This document shows positions 1 to 63,937 of a stretch of 64,000 nucleotides of DNA, in pieces. This stretch comes from Escherichia phage SF, in the sequence record MH359124, one strand, 5' to 3'. Within the stretch, counting starts at the first letter, position 1. Each line of letters starts with the position of its first letter. The translations under genes were made by a program, and so were the position numbers. The notes under the pieces were generated by a model. That model had not been told where the DNA came from. It saw only the letters and a list, made by a program, of their open reading frames with translations, and did not search any database.

Positions 1-91
1 ATTTGAATGTCATGAACAAGGCATAAAAACTGCCAGACAATTTGCCGAGTTCATGAAAATAAAATTAGAGCCTACATCTATCTAATTTACT

Positions 92-120
92 AGCCCCTTC
101 CGAAAGGTTGGGGCTTTTTT
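92..120 (+). terminator. Rho-independent terminator (GC stem followed by T6)
   Basis: Seen in sequence: AGCCCC...GGGGCT stem followed by TTTTTT. Confidence 0.6.
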
Positions 121-130
121 GCATTTAGCA

Positions 131-182
131 GTTTACTTCTCCTCAGGTTGTGTTATAGTAGACCTTACTTACTAGAGGAGAA
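131..182 (+). promoter_or_regulatory. Early promoter cassette (GTTTAC -35, TATAGT -10) embedded in an 8-bp inverted repeat TTCTCCTC/GAGGAGAA that overlaps the SD
   Basis: Motifs read directly; same architecture recurs at 37926-37976 and 50631-50681. Confidence 0.55.
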
Positions 183-186
183 CGTT

Positions 187-366
187 ATGTCACGTAAAGA
201 AAAAATTTCTAAGTTAATGTTTTTAATTGAAGAGTACGCTAACGCTGTATCCGATTGGGAAAATGCCCACGGGTGTGAAGACGGTGATATCGATATCAAT
301 AAGGCAATGAAAAAGATGGCTGAAGCCCACACCGAATTGCAAATGTATGTTAACGAGATTATGTGA
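187..366 (+). CDS. Hypothetical protein (60 aa)
   Basis: ORF with GAGGAG SD 6 nt upstream of ATG at 187. Confidence 0.5.
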   Translation: MSRKEKISKLMFLIEEYANAVSDWENAHGCEDGDIDINKAMKKMAEAHTELQMYVNEIM

Positions 367-4655: not shown

Positions 4656-4686
4656 GTTTACAAGGTCTATGGTTATGTTATTATAG
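4656..4686 (+). promoter_or_regulatory. T4-type early promoter
   Basis: GTTTAC ... TATTATAG spacing. Confidence 0.5.
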
Positions 4687-4711
4687 ACCTATCAACTACT
4701 GGAGGTAAAAC

Positions 4712-36019: not shown

Positions 36020-37462
36020 GTGGTAGAAATTATTTTGTCTCATCTAGTATATGACCAGGCTTATTTTTCTAAGGTCTGGCCTTATATGGATTCTGAGTAT
36101 TTTGAGCGTGGACCGGCAAAAAACGTCTTTAAAATTATAAAGAGCCACGTTAACGAATATAATGCAATGCCATCTATCAATGCGTTAAAGGTGGCTTTAG
36201 ATAACAGTTCTTTAACTGAAGCCGAATACAAAGGAACTTCAGACCTAATTGAAAAATTGGCTGATACTCCTGAAGACCACGAATGGTTGGTTAAAGAAAC
36301 TGAGAAATATGTCCAGCAAAAAGCGATGTATAATGCTACATCAAAAATCATTGAGATTCAGTCTAATGCTGAACTACCTCCAGAACAACGTAACAAGAAA
36401 ATGCCTGACGTAGGAGCTATTCCTGATATTATGCGTCAAGCACTTTCAATTTCGTTTGATAGTTATGTTGGGCATGACTGGATGGAAGACTACGAAGCAC
36501 GCTGGCTTTCTTATCTGAACAAAGCACGTAAGGTCCCGTTCAAATTAAACATTCTGAATAAAATCACTAAAGGTGGTGCTGAAACTGGTACACTGAATGT
36601 TTTAATGGCTGGTGTTAATGTTGGTAAATCTTTAGGCCTTTGTTCACTTGCTGCAGATTATCTTCAAACAGGTCATAATGTTCTTTATATTTCCATGGAA
36701 ATGGCTGAAGAAGTTTGTGCTAAGCGTATAGATGCAAACATGCTTGACGTATCACTTGATGATATTGATGATGGTAACGTATCTTATGCCGAATATAAAG
36801 CCAAGATGGAAAAATGGCGTTCAAAAACAACATTAGGACGTTTAGTAGTTAAACAGTATCCTACTGGTGGAGCTAATGCTAATACATTCCGTGCATTGCT
36901 TAATGAGTTAAAACTTAAGAAGAACTTTGTGCCATCTGTAATCATGGTTGATTACTTAGGTATTTGCGGGTCTTGTCGTATCAGAGTTTACACTGAAAAT
37001 AGTTACACATTAGTTAAAGCTATCGCAGAAGAACTTCGTGCATTAGCAGTAGAATCTGAAACAGTTCTATGGACTGCAGCTCAAGTAGGACGTGCAGCAT
37101 GGGATGCTTCGGATATGAACATGAGCGATATTGCAGAATCGGCAGGTTTACCAGCAACGGCAGATTTCATGTTGGCCGTAATTGAAACCGAAGAACTTGC
37201 ACAAGCTGAACAACAACTTATCAAACAAATCAAATCACGATATGGTGATAAGAATAAGTGGAATAAATTCCTGATGGGTGTACGTAAAGGCAACCAGAAA
37301 TGGATTGAGATTGAGCAAGAAGGCATGAACACACCTAACACAGTAAATGAAAACGCAGGTGCTCAGATGCGTCAGGCAGAGGTGAATCGTACGGAACGCG
37401 TAGGTAAAGCCAAAGCAACACGTGCTGACCTAGATAGCTTAGCCAACGAGTTAAAATTTTAA
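36020..37462 (+). CDS. 41: Replicative DNA helicase gp41 (DnaB-like), GTG start
   Basis: MVEIILSHLVYDQAYFSKVWPYMDSEYF; Walker A GVNVGKS; AAGGAG SD before GTG. Confidence 0.93.
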   Translation: MVEIILSHLVYDQAYFSKVWPYMDSEYFERGPAKNVFKIIKSHVNEYNAMPSINALKVALDNSSLTEAEYKGTSDLIEKLADTPEDHEWLVKETEKYVQQKAMYNATSKIIEIQSNAELPPEQRNKKMPDVGAIPDIMRQALSISFDSYVGHDWMEDYEARWLSYLNKARKVPFKLNILNKITKGGAETGTLNVLMAGVNVGKSLGLCSLAADYLQTGHNVLYISMEMAEEVCAKRIDANMLDVSLDDIDDGNVSYAEYKAKMEKWRSKTTLGRLVVKQYPTGGANANTFRALLNELKLKKNFVPSVIMVDYLGICGSCRIRVYTENSYTLVKAIAEELRALAVESETVLWTAAQVGRAAWDASDMNMSDIAESAGLPATADFMLAVIETEELAQAEQQLIKQIKSRYGDKNKWNKFLMGVRKGNQKWIEIEQEGMNTPNTVNENAGAQMRQAEVNRTERVGKAKATRADLDSLANELKF

Positions 37463-37467
37463 TAAAA

Positions 37468-37495
37468 AGGAGACTTCGGTCTCCTTTCGGGGTTT
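37468..37495 (+). terminator. UUCG-tetraloop terminator (GGAGAC-TTCG-GTCTCC)
   Basis: Seen in sequence. Confidence 0.6.
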
Positions 37496-37550
37496 ACATC
37501 TTCCTCTAGGCATGATATGATGTACTTACACAAACCAAGAGGAAAACATT

Positions 37551-37925
37551 ATGAATATGTCTCAAGCAATTTTTACTGCAATCACCGAAAACACAACTGT
37601 TGAAGTAGTTTCTCCGCTGGCAACCTACGTTATTCTTGCTCCTAAAACTATTGTATCTCGTATGGAAAACATGGGCAAACGTATCGTACAAATTGTTGGA
37701 GCTGGAAATCAAAAACTTGATTATCTGCGAACCATCAAAGCTTATGAACATTTCCAACTCGAAAAAGGTTCTCCTATCCAGGTAGAACTCGTAAATGGTG
37801 ATATCGTTCGAGCAATGTTCCATCATTTCTATGCATTGAATGACCCATCTAAAGCTGTTCGTTTAATTGCATACGACGCAAACCAAACCGAAATCAACGC
37901 AGATATATCTAAATTACATTTTTAA
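37551..37925 (+). CDS. Hypothetical protein
   Basis: ORF with GAGGAAA SD. Confidence 0.5.
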   Translation: MNMSQAIFTAITENTTVEVVSPLATYVILAPKTIVSRMENMGKRIVQIVGAGNQKLDYLRTIKAYEHFQLEKGSPIQVELVNGDIVRAMFHHFYALNDPSKAVRLIAYDANQTEINADISKLHF

Positions 37926-37976
37926 GTTTACTTCTCCAGTAGTTGTGTTATGATAGACCTATCAACTACTGGAGAA
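37926..37976 (+). promoter_or_regulatory. Early promoter cassette with perfect 14-bp inverted repeat TTCTCCAGTAGTTG/CAACTACTGGAGAA spanning promoter and SD
   Basis: Arms at 37932-37945 and 37963-37976 checked base by base. Confidence 0.6.
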
Positions 37977-37980
37977 CAAA

Positions 37981-38298
37981 ATGAAAACCATCGACTGTAA
38001 AGCAGAATTTAAGATTTTTTATCACGGATCAAGTAGTTCAGCTAACATAGAAAATATGCTTTGTCCTCCTGAGGAAACAGGAGTTCTGTCTGAAACTGGA
38101 CGTAAGAAAAACTTGGATCGTGTATTCTTTACTGAAGATATCGGTTTAGCAAAGATTTATGCAGGACGAGCAGCACGCTCTTGTGGAGGTGAACCACGTC
38201 TCTATCGAGTAATTTCTCCGGTAGACGTAGTTCAAATGAATAATACTAAAGGTGCTACAGTTTATCACGCTGAATGGGCATTTTGCGAGGAAATATGA
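37981..38298 (+). CDS. Hypothetical protein
   Basis: ORF. Confidence 0.5.
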   Translation: MKTIDCKAEFKIFYHGSSSSANIENMLCPPEETGVLSETGRKKNLDRVFFTEDIGLAKIYAGRAARSCGGEPRLYRVISPVDVVQMNNTKGATVYHAEWAFCEEI

Positions 38299-38483: not shown

Positions 38484-38554
38484 TTTTAAAATAACCGTTT
38501 ACAAGCACCACATACTGTGTTACTATCTTTCTATCAACTACAGAGGAAATTGAA

Positions 38555-39233: not shown

Positions 39234-39296
39234 ACTTGTTTACATTATAGATGGACTATAGTATAGTAGTCCTATCAAATTAACTAAGGAGTTAAA

Positions 39297-45241: not shown

Positions 45242-45298
45242 TGTACAAACTCTTCCGACGATGATACTATACTTTTATCAACCACAGGAGAAACCTAA

Positions 45299-50197: not shown

Positions 50198-50206
50198 GGA
50201 ATTATT

Positions 50207-50626
50207 ATGAATATTGTAAATCTCTCTACAAGTGATTACGTATATGTATCTGTTGCTTCTCGCTCTAAAGTTGCTGGGAAGTTGGTTGAAGTTCTTTCTG
50301 TAAGTTGTGGACTCTTTAGTCCACATCAAGTTAAAGTTCGTGATGCTGATGGCAACATTGGCTACGTCTCAAGCCAATTCATTGAACCAGAAGAAAAAGC
50401 GTTCAAATGGGGACTATGCAGATCGGTTTCTGTTGAAAAAGACCATGAATTCACTATTGCTGCGGCAACTGATGGAACGCCGTGGAAAACTAAGCAAATC
50501 GCCGGATTTATTAGTGACCGTTGGGTAGAAGATGGTGTTAAGCTTTATAACATCGTTTTCGCTGGACAGTTCATGGTAGTTCCTGAATTCCAAATTAAAA
50601 AATATAGCCCAGCTGCTTTCGCATAA
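50207..50626 (+). CDS. Hypothetical protein, member 3 of tandem paralog triplet
   Basis: SVASRSKVAGKLVEV and DRWVEDGVKLYNIVFAGQFMVV shared. Confidence 0.6.
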   Translation: MNIVNLSTSDYVYVSVASRSKVAGKLVEVLSVSCGLFSPHQVKVRDADGNIGYVSSQFIEPEEKAFKWGLCRSVSVEKDHEFTIAAATDGTPWKTKQIAGFISDRWVEDGVKLYNIVFAGQFMVVPEFQIKKYSPAAFA

Positions 50627-50630
50627 AGTT

Positions 50631-50681
50631 GTTTACTTCTCCTCTGGTTTTGATATTATAACCATATCAACCAGAGGAGAA
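50631..50681 (+). promoter_or_regulatory. Early promoter cassette with perfect 13-bp inverted repeat TTCTCCTCTGGTT/AACCAGAGGAGAA spanning promoter and SD
   Basis: Arms at 50637-50649 and 50669-50681. Confidence 0.6.
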
Positions 50682-50685
50682 TAAT

Positions 50686-51210
50686 ATGTTAGTTTACCGC
50701 GTAGAACGTAGTTTTTGTACTCAACGTGAATCATTACCAGGAATTGCTATCGAAGACGGTAAAGCCGTCAGAATTTGGGAAACCTCTTGGAATAAAGAAC
50801 CTCGTTCGCCATACGGTTGGTCGGGCACCGACAACTCTGAAGAAACATGGGAGTTCCTTGATAAGCATGGAATACTCTCAGGTAACTTCTACCATCATGG
50901 CGACAACTACAATGTCTCTAATCGTCCTACAGTAAATGAAGACAAACTCCTTGAACAAAATATCTTAAGATACTATAGAATTGAGCACACATTTGAATTG
51001 AGTGAAGATTGGGCTCAAGGGTTCTATTTTGGATTTGAAAGTGTTGACGCGGTTTATGCATGGTTTGATGACCAGGTGGATGTTGAACTCTTGAAAGCTA
51101 AAGGATACTACATAGCGGTCTATGAAGCACCTGATTTCATCCTCGGAAGTTGTCAATTAATGTTTAGACGTTCATTGGCAGAACAAGTTGATTTTATTTT
51201 GCTAAAATGA
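50686..51210 (+). CDS. Hypothetical protein (motB position)
   Basis: ORF; synteny only. Confidence 0.45.
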   Translation: MLVYRVERSFCTQRESLPGIAIEDGKAVRIWETSWNKEPRSPYGWSGTDNSEETWEFLDKHGILSGNFYHHGDNYNVSNRPTVNEDKLLEQNILRYYRIEHTFELSEDWAQGFYFGFESVDAVYAWFDDQVDVELLKAKGYYIAVYEAPDFILGSCQLMFRRSLAEQVDFILLK

Positions 51211-59825: not shown

Positions 59826-59893
59826 TTTCATAAAAGTGTTTACAACTAAGTAGGACTATGATACAGTAGTCCTATCTAAAAGAGGATAGCATC

Positions 59894-60157: not shown

Positions 60158-60404
60158 GCTCTAAAATGTGGATAGGAATATGGTTTCTTAGTATCCCTAT
60201 GATTTGTATAATATTTTCAATTGCATTGAGGTACTTATGAAAAATGCACTTATTGTACTAAGAACAATTTGCGATACAGGTTTTTACATCGCATGTTCGT
60301 TCACTGGAACATGGTTGGCTTTAACATATTTTAATGTAATTTAATTGTTTACAACACAGTAGGATTATGGTATAGTAGTCCTATCAAAACACGAGGAAAA
60401 CAAA

Positions 60405-63304: not shown

Positions 63305-63937
63305 ATGTCTAAAGTTACTTACATCATCAAAGCTTCTGAAAACGCTCTGAATGAAAAAACTGCTGCAATAATGGTTTATGTCATTAAGAACAACTTCACC
63401 ACGGCTGCCAATGTCCGTGAAGCTCTGGAAGCGGAATACAATGCATCGGTTGTTAACTCTAACATTGGTGTATTGATTAAGAAAGGTTTAGTCGAAAAAT
63501 CCGGTGATGGACTTGTAGCAACAGGCGAAGCAATGGATATTATCCAAAAAGCTGCAGACCTCTTTGCCCAAGAAAATGCTCCAGAACTTCTTCAGAAACG
63601 TAACACTAGAAAAGCACGTGGAGTTACTCCTGAAATGCACGAATTAGCGAACTTTGTTTTTGAAAATATTAAAGATAAAGTTGAAGTTAAAGAAATTGGT
63701 GAAAACCGTAGTAACTTGGAAGTTCGATTTGCAAAACGAGTTCTAGGTATTCGTCAGATCGAAATTCGTCGAAATGGTTCTCTTAGAATCTTTGCATACA
63801 ACATGTCAGAAACTGAATCAAAGCTGTTTACTTCTCTTGAAAATGATGTTAAGATTAAGATCGGTGGTAAATATACATACATTGACTTCCCTAATGTGTC
63901 CAAAGAAATCATTACCCTTGTAACTAACGTACTGTGA
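63305..63937 (+). CDS. motA: Middle-transcription activator MotA
   Basis: MSKVTYIIKAS...SNIGVLIKKGLVEKSGDGL matches T4 MotA. Confidence 0.9.
   Translation: MSKVTYIIKASENALNEKTAAIMVYVIKNNFTTAANVREALEAEYNASVVNSNIGVLIKKGLVEKSGDGLVATGEAMDIIQKAADLFAQENAPELLQKRNTRKARGVTPEMHELANFVFENIKDKVEVKEIGENRSNLEVRFAKRVLGIRQIEIRRNGSLRIFAYNMSETESKLFTSLENDVKIKIGGKYTYIDFPNVSKEIITLVTNVL

Follow-up and report, generated by a model that had tools for sequence, protein, structure and literature searches.

The DNA described here (the window) is a stretch of 64,000 nt from Escherichia phage SF (sequence record MH359124), an RB69-like, T4-type coliphage of the genus Mosigvirus; the region of interest shares 98% identity with RB69/HX01-type coliphages. 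Early transcription runs along the + strand of the window. On this strand the gene 41 helicase is followed by an early promoter (P37492), the RB69ORF041c homologue, a second early promoter at 37926, and the RB69ORF040c homologue, 3' of which lie, in order, dmd-like, imm, and sp genes (Table 1). The stem-loop between gene 41 and P37492 contains a UUCG tetraloop and a GGAG within the stem, and its U-tract is weak; it is labelled a terminator in a relative, and the -35 of P37492 lies directly 3' of it. The product of the RB69ORF040c homologue has no Pfam match, and its public labels conflict ("hypothetical protein," "ADP-ribosyl transferase," or "clamp loader subunit"). For the downstream genes at all three loci discussed below, Pfam and PHROGs returned just families of unknown function. 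A scan for cassettes composed of GTTTAC, 17-18 nt, TAnnnT, and then an SD, a start codon, and an ORF found 26 T4-type early-promoter cassettes on the + strand of the window.

Table 1. Features of the three cassettes and their surroundings (window coordinates)
Feature	Position	Strand	Remarks
Intrinsic-terminator-like hairpin and T-run	91-120	+	directly 5' of the 131 cassette; read from sequence
131 cassette	131-182	+	
-35 (131)	131-136	+	
5' arm (131)	137-144	+	TTCTCCTC
-10 (131)	154-159	+	TATAGT
3' arm (131)	175-182	+	GAGGAGAA
DUF7438 protein gene	187-366		59 aa; ATG at 187; served by the 131 cassette
Gene 41 helicase	36020-37462	+	
Stem-loop 3' of gene 41	37468-37491		GGAGAC-UUCG-GUCUCC, then UUUCGGGG
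Early promoter P37492	37492-37521	+	5' of the RB69ORF041c homologue
RB69ORF041c homologue	37551-37925	+	124 aa; upstream of the 37926 cassette
-35 (37926)	37926-37931	+	GTTTAC; T4-type early (σ70) promoter
5' arm (37926)	37932-37945	+	TTCTCCAGTAGTTG; anti-SD/anti-leader, in the promoter spacer
TGn extended -10 and -10 (37926)	37946-37954	+	-10 is TATGAT; inside the hairpin loop
3' arm (37926)	37963-37976	+	CAACTACTGGAGAA; holds SD GGAG (37971-37974)
RB69ORF040c homologue	37981-38298	+	105 aa; phrog_2110; downstream of the 37926 cassette
-35 (50631)	50631-50636	+	GTTTAC
5' arm (50631)	50637-50649	+	TTCTCCTCTGGTT
-10 (50631)	50654-50659	+	TATTAT
3' arm including SD (50631)	50663-50681	+	inner AUAUCA (50663-50668), then AACCAGAGGAGAA (50669-50681)
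Gene served by the 50631 cassette	50686-51210	+	174 aa; phrog_1106

The -35 at 37926 directly abuts the TAA of the upstream ORF (37923-37925), and from there the cassette reads GTTTAC, TTCTCCAGTAGTTG, TGT TATGAT, AGACCTAT, CAACTACTGGAGAA, CAAA, and ATG. As a promoter (GTTTAC-N17-TGnTATGAT), it is a good match to the T4 early, σ70-dependent type. In addition, the spacer between its -35 and -10 elements is complementary to the leader of the gene that it serves: the two arms pair perfectly over 14 bp around a 17-nt loop, and the 3' arm stops 4 nt short of the ATG. The 5' arm occupies promoter positions of about -29 to -16, with TTCTCC at -29 to -24, and this TTCTCC sits 33-39 nt 5' of the GGAG. 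From σ70 promoter geometry, transcription would begin at about 37961, 7 nt past the -10 element. Since the 5' arm lies between the -35 and -10 elements, by this geometry a transcript begun at this promoter should not contain it. The leader motif TATCAACTAC(T/A)GGAG that makes up the 3' arm is also found at 4690-4705, 38530-38545, and 45275-45290, each time 3' of an early promoter. Because this motif recurs and is kept in orthologues that do not have the 5' arm, the 3' arm represents a common leader consensus, and it is the spacer that creates the stem.

The original prediction placed the same arrangement at two other loci, 131 and 50631, and held that at all three the bases following the -35 and the SD region of the next gene are exact reverse complements, giving a stem of 13-14 bp. 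This description is accurate for 37926 (14 bp) and for 50631, where a perfect 13-bp pairing is extended in the predicted fold by six inner pairs past a 2-nt bulge to a total of about 18 bp. It does not hold at 131, where exact pairing is limited to 8 bp and extension gives 11 of 12 positions, at the cost of an A-A mismatch and a G-U pair. Similar but weaker cassettes are present at 37492, 14522, and 44604; in P37492, TTCCTCT (37501-37507) faces AGAGGAA (37538-37544). The identity of the gene served by the 50631 cassette as motB was considered and rejected, given that its product has no similarity to T4 MotB. Instead, the ORF at 50200-50626, which ends just 5' of the cassette, bears a MotB-like C-terminus, and the 174-aa gene occupies the slot between motB and cef.

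The combination of GTTTAC and TTCTCC (GTTTACTTCTCC) has three exact matches in the window, which are the three loci. When one mismatch is allowed, 0.27 matches are expected and 0 of 100 shuffles reach four; the one additional match, at 63826, is not followed by an SD or a start codon. Furthermore, no perfect inverted repeat with a loop of ≤40 nt anywhere in the 64 kb is longer than the stems at 37926 and 50631, which rank first and second in length; a first-order Markov null yields about one repeat of at least 11 bp per window. The third longest short-range repeat, a perfect 12 bp with a 15-nt loop (1157-1168/1184-1195, GACGAATGTTTT/AAAACATTCGTC), lies inside a coding ORF (914-1456). For 37926 and 50631, chance is rejected by this rank, by fold z-scores of about -5, and by the permutation of own and cross-pairings described below; for locus 131 taken alone, it is not rejected.

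A further element of the original prediction was that the SD would be free in RNA begun at the cassette's own promoter and sequestered in RNA that reads through from upstream. The predicted folds of the two RNAs agree with this at 37926 and 50631. At 37926, RNA that includes both arms (37926-38000) folds at -21.7 kcal/mol (z of -4.6, 0/200 shuffles), versus -1.1 kcal/mol, no better than shuffles, for RNA from the predicted start (37961-38000). At 50631, the corresponding values are -24.5 kcal/mol for positions 50631-50705 (z of -5.1) and -0.9 kcal/mol, again no better than shuffles, from the predicted start. The predicted helix covers the SD fully at both loci. Accessibility was assessed using partition functions with 60 nt of upstream context, taking the mean unpaired probability of the SD core. 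In read-through versus promoter-proximal RNA, this probability is 0.000 versus 0.698 at 37926 and 0.000 versus 0.597 at 50631. The same contrast is seen at 131 (0.002 versus 0.452), but there the hairpin by itself is matched by equally good shuffles (z of -0.98), and the feature is weak at this locus.

Several other identities for the stems were considered. An intrinsic terminator was rejected, as no U-tract follows the stems (CAAAAUGAAAACC and UAAUAUGUUAG are found there instead) and a terminator consensus scan called neither the 37926 nor the 50631 stem. A known RNA family was likewise rejected, since Rfam at the gathering score gave zero family matches in the whole window. Finally, a DNA cruciform or operator is unlikely, given that the loops are 17-19 nt and that the arm sequences differ between cassettes and so present no common operator.

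Within Mosigvirus, both arms are invariant. In the Dhaka-, Gapriver-, and Tegunavirus genera and in phage Mizar, the RB69ORF040c orthologue is present without ORF041c, and its cassette lies right after the gene-41 terminator. In these other-genus cassettes the 3' arm is kept and the 5' half is different, leaving 4-6 bp. Similarly, Mizar, UPEC01, and IME08/JS98-type phages retain the gene and the 3' arm, with the 5' half replaced and the pairing reduced to 4-5 bp. Orthologous cassettes situated behind a terminator have weak or absent stems. Covariation among the RB69ORF040c orthologues, which had been expected, was not seen, as the arms are invariant in Mosigvirus and elsewhere the stem has been lost by replacement of the 5' half; because the orthologues are uninformative in this respect, the test was moved to paralogous and independent cassettes.

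Homology to Mizar, UPEC01, IME08, and EP02SG begins inside the cassette, and in the comparison with relatives the breaks fall at query positions 80, 104-107, and 132. EP02SG (196-262, compared with window positions 37492-37983) has no RB69ORF041c homologue; there, the start of ORF040c follows directly on the 5' half of the P37492 cassette, with the junction in the SD (..CCAAGAGGA|GAACAAAATG), apparently the result of a deletion by recombination between two neighbouring cassettes. Within the window, P7317 (7317-7360) and P49123 (49123-49166) are identical over 43 nt although they are 42 kb apart, and P62917 (62917-62962) and P63239 (63239-63284) differ at 1 of 45 nt (also 3253). The latter two lie 322 nt apart and flank a 71-aa ORF, a layout like that proposed for the excision of mini-circles by promoter-early stem-loops (PeSLs), which are considered below.

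Complementarity between spacer and leader is a recurring property of T4-type early promoters. Anti-SD 4-mers (CTCC, CCTC, or TCCT) in the first 13 nt of the spacer are present in 6 of the 26 window cassettes versus a background of 5.1% (p=0.0017), and in 7 of the 27 cassettes of the T4 0-76-kb early region versus 4.5% (p=0.00015). Each spacer was also paired with the 22 nt before its own start codon, and the strength of this duplex was compared by permutation with pairings to the leaders of other cassettes. Own-leader duplexes are stronger than cross-pairings in both the window (p=0.0086) and T4 (p=0.00015). The T4 regB, motB.2, nrdC.8, and denV spacers form duplexes of -18 to -21 kcal/mol with their own leaders and have no better partner among 26 other leaders; the corresponding hairpins have energies of -18 to -24 kcal/mol (z of -4.2 to -5.8). 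The T4 reference record has no annotated promoter features, and a time-resolved omics paper on T4 yielded nothing decisive.

When 2.9 million viral contigs were scanned for GTTTACWTCTCC-N11-TANNNT, T4-type cassettes were obtained together with chance matches. The chance matches have complements of 3-6 bp placed anywhere, while the T4-type cassettes have stems of 5-14 bp that always end at the SD and have differing interiors (CCAGTAG/CTACTGG, CCTGTAG/CTACAGG, CCTCATG/CATGAGG, CCATTAG/CTAATGG, and CCTCTAG/CTAGAGG); at the outermost position, some cassettes have A-U and others U-A. Covariation was scored in a fixed register among 28 distinct cassettes of the WTCTCC class, whose interior pairs occur as UA, AU, CG, and GC. 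The score is 0.195 versus 0.102±0.015 when shuffled (0/500), and cells changed on both sides number 49 versus 26.8±3.7, statistics that overstate independence because the cassettes are phylogenetically related. However, scores in slid registers are 0.035-0.125, and this register control, together with the replication in two genomes, argues that the signal is real. Stems containing 9 or more Watson-Crick pairs number 33, of which 23 extend over the SD and 10 do not reach it. Interior mismatches are G-U in five cases and A-C in one, which is the direction expected for selection on the sense RNA and gives weak support to that selection over an operator, with counts too small to carry weight.

The strong stems also have a preferred genomic setting. 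For each of the six strongest in the window and T4, the distance past the stop codon of an upstream ORF is 0-6 nt. Duplexes of ≤-12 kcal/mol are found in 17 of 61 cassettes that abut an ORF versus 4 of 51 others (Fisher p=0.006), a difference that is significant only when loci picked by the TCTCC pattern are included; in the unbiased set from the window and T4, the counts are 6/28 versus 1/24 (p=0.076). As the other 22 of these 28 abutting promoters do not have such a stem, the hairpin is a gene-specific option rather than the rule. Scanning found no terminator-like sites between P37492, a likely source of read-through RNA into the 37926 cassette, and 37926, or between P49123 and 50631, while the weak locus 131 directly follows an intrinsic terminator. 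Strong stems at junctions that have no terminator are the pattern expected if the hairpin replaces a terminator as an insulator.

The sequestered SD is also a potential site for RegB, the T4 endoribonuclease that inactivates early mRNAs by cutting GGAG within SDs. Together with S1, RegB targets the 11-nt sequence GGAGRAYARAA in single-stranded RNA, and its activity is prevented by RNA structure (PMC1702504, PMC3014915). GGAGAACAAAA (37971-37981) matches this consensus exactly, GGAGAATAATA at 50676 is a near match, and GGAGAACGTTA at 177 is a poor one. Thus, the masked site fits the target located in early SDs; however, RegB/S1 sites are defined as unstructured, and here the site would be unstructured in only one of two transcript isoforms. 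Pairing in the read-through RNA should block the ribosome and RegB alike. In T4, the SDs of regB, motB.2, and nrdC.8 are cleaved by RegB in vivo and that of denV weakly (PMC1702504), which means that they are single-stranded in a large share of the RNA and fits with promoter-proximal transcripts being the substrates.

Given the anatomy, predicted folds, statistical excess, covariation, and association with context, all of which come from the sequence analysis itself, the cassettes at 37926 and 50631 are best described, with somewhat better than even confidence, as promoter-embedded anti-SD insulators. Each consists of a strong T4-type early promoter with a spacer that is reverse-complementary, from about -29 to -16, to the leader and SD of the promoter's own gene. 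Initiation at this promoter would begin about 2 nt before the 3' arm and would generate an unstructured leader of about 20 nt with the SD free. This short RNA would be translatable at once and, at 37971, would also offer the RegB target. In contrast, a polymerase arriving from upstream, that is, on transcripts from P37492 or through gene 41 in the case of 37926 and on those from P49123 in the case of 50631, would transcribe both arms, and a hairpin of 13-18 bp would form about 30 nt after the first arm emerges, burying the SD. The cistron on this long RNA would be poorly translated and would escape cutting by RegB at that position, although a degree of initiation might persist through standby binding or through ribosomes that translate the upstream ORF. 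The net result would be a gene whose translation is limited to the period in which its own immediate-early promoter is active and which is insulated from read-through where no terminator intervenes. The parts of this scheme that we infer are the start site, the existence and amount of the read-through RNA, and the effect on translation or on cleavage by RegB.

Other explanations for the repeats can be weighed against this evidence. The cassettes might simply be PeSL stem-loops, acting as recombination modules and/or attenuators of upstream transcription, with the masking of the SD incidental. Their anatomy fits this explanation, near-identical cassettes recur in the window, homology breaks fall inside cassettes, including the EP02SG junction within the SD, and there are the 10 of 33 strong stems that miss the SD. 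Against these points, the other 23 end exactly at the SD, with interiors that covary in register with it; no U-tract is present and the terminator scan is silent; strong stems are enriched where a terminator is absent; and the only PeSL stem that has been tested as a terminator, from RB49, is a G/C-rich one (PMC2839356). A role in recombination is compatible with translational silencing and is no substitute for it, and this explanation in its exclusive form is judged unlikely. About as unlikely is the idea that the pairing serves mainly to protect long transcripts from RegB at their intercistronic GGAG, with silencing of the masked gene being secondary. The exact and near matches to a consensus that must be single-stranded are in accord with such a shield, as is the presence of stems at regB, motB.2, nrdC.8, and the weakly cleaved denV. 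Good RegB-type sites are also more frequent in cassettes with stems (12/29 versus 24/119, p=0.03), but this enrichment is confounded because the sample was drawn with the TCTCC pattern, which implies GGAGA. In addition, the RegB site at locus 131 is poor, and an altered A-rich tract, as found in denV, would be a simpler means of escape. By sequence analysis the shielding and silencing effects are inseparable. Most likely, PeSL-type recombination is the way in which insulator cassettes are shuffled and sometimes broken, and shielding from RegB is a linked consequence.

Less probable still is that the repeats have no function. In this case, a preference for pyrimidines after the -35 element and a purine-rich SD would provide a seed of 5-6 bp, which templated mutation or recombination would extend and which would then drift. 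T4 is known to undergo templated mutation at quasi-palindromes. Runs rich in T/C do open about 40% of T4 spacers, the extension past CTCC/GGAG is bimodal (0 in 9 of 23 cases and at least 4 in 10 of 23), and orthologues lose the stem while keeping the gene. However, such drift is at odds with own-versus-cross pairing that is significant in two independent genomes, with stems enriched at terminator-less junctions, with several independent stem sequences sharing one end point, the SD, and, small as the counts are, with the interior excess of G-U over A-C. The geometry of the upstream stop codon also makes it very unlikely that the hairpin is a device for translational coupling, in which ribosomes ending the upstream ORF would melt the hairpin and pass to the downstream SD. 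The upstream stop codon is suitably close, 0-6 nt before the -35 and thus 6-12 nt before the 5' arm. Yet when this stop codon occupies the A site, the beginning of the 5' arm is about +13 from the first P-site nucleotide, which is at or past the point where the ribosome unwinds RNA (about +11). Consequently, opening would be limited to 3-4 outer pairs at most, leaving a stem of at least 10 bp in which CC still holds the GG of the SD.

Promoter-embedded anti-SD insulation extends established principles, and it would be the early-promoter counterpart of regulation already established at late promoters of T4. In T4 e, soc, 49, I-TevI/II/III, and segB, as well as Aeh1 mobE, the SD and/or AUG pairs with an upstream segment in RNA from a distal promoter, and a proximal promoter within the structure generates RNA that is missing the 5' arm and is translated (PMC3014915, PMC2988022). 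The likeness lies in a stable helix predicted over the SD and in a promoter sequence embedded in the structure. However, the proximal promoters in all of these cases are late promoters (gp55, TATAAATA) and delay translation, whereas the cassettes here carry early, σ70-type promoters with the 5' arm in the -35/-10 spacer; their predicted effect is the mirror image, confining translation to the immediate-early period. Without a late promoter, these cassettes are a variant of this type rather than strict members. No version with an early promoter appears in the reviews consulted on transcription and post-transcriptional control in T4. A 1986 NAR paper on the T4 58.3-65.5-kb region reportedly noted possible stem-loops before denV and orf61.9 (regB), so an earlier notice of the structures, not necessarily of the mechanism, is likely.

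The cassettes also conform to the description of PeSLs, the stem-loops associated with early promoters in T4-type phages (Arbiol et al. 2010; Comeau et al. 2014). A PeSL contains an AT-rich upstream region, a σ70-like promoter, a stem between the -35 and -10 elements or over the -10, an SD, and an ATG (PMC2839356, PMC4122927). The 26 window cassettes have an AT-rich upstream region, an early promoter, an SD, and a start codon, those with a spacer stem have the -10 in the loop or the inner stem, and recombination breakpoints lie inside; as with PeSLs, many copies are situated between small, non-essential genes. Unlike in the PeSL description, the 3' arm is the SD itself with no U-tract after it. 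The stem was read by the authors of that work as a terminator or attenuator and a recombination site, and the word "translation" occurs 0 times in PMC2839356. A third relative is found among bacterial σ54 promoters. In an oligo library, a CT-rich anti-SD motif in the non-transcribed part of such promoters silences read-through translation, pairing with the downstream SD in read-through RNA only (Levy et al. 2017, 10.1101/086108). Here too, an anti-SD motif lies in a non-transcribed promoter part near an SD. The σ54 insulators, however, are bacterial and use motifs of 3-5 nt, whereas the phage stems are 13-18 bp, and the cassettes contain σ70-type hexamers in place of the σ54 signature (GG-N10-GC). 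The original prediction missed the precedents at T4 late and σ54 promoters, the match to PeSLs, and the block of the GGAG to RegB.

If the hairpins work as predicted, the choice of promoter would be coupled to translatability for a subset of immediate-early genes, such that, without the help of any protein factor, one and the same cistron would be expressed from a short RNA but not from a long one. This would provide a cis-encoded reason why some early proteins stop being made while upstream early and middle promoters still transcribe their sequences. It would also add an isoform dimension to targeting by RegB and give PeSL stem-loops a function beyond recombination and termination. More tentatively, there might be a family-wide layer of control, a possibility that is considerably weaker than insulation at the two loci: some 15-25% of T4-type early promoters, including those of regB, denV, motB.2, and nrdC.8, would carry an anti-leader spacer that confers translation from the own promoter only, stands in for a terminator, and creates a read-through junction immune to RegB, thereby contributing to the rapid and incompletely explained shut-off of early protein synthesis. 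The predicted action of the hairpins is open to direct testing in T4 with these four genes, and the design represents a compact, natural insulator part for synthetic operons.

A second class of hairpin, to which the 10 of 33 strong stems that miss the SD belong, is also associated with early promoters. In these, the 5' arm is again in the spacer and the 3' arm is at about +1 to +10, so that the stem spans the -10 element and stops short of the SD (arms such as TTGGTAGGA/TCCTACCAA and TAGGACT/AGTCCTA). In the window, this class is found at 580-625, 4656-4700, 39238-39285, 59838-59880, and 60347-60390, and in T4 it is represented by ipII (14 bp) and by a cassette at about 57977 (13 bp).
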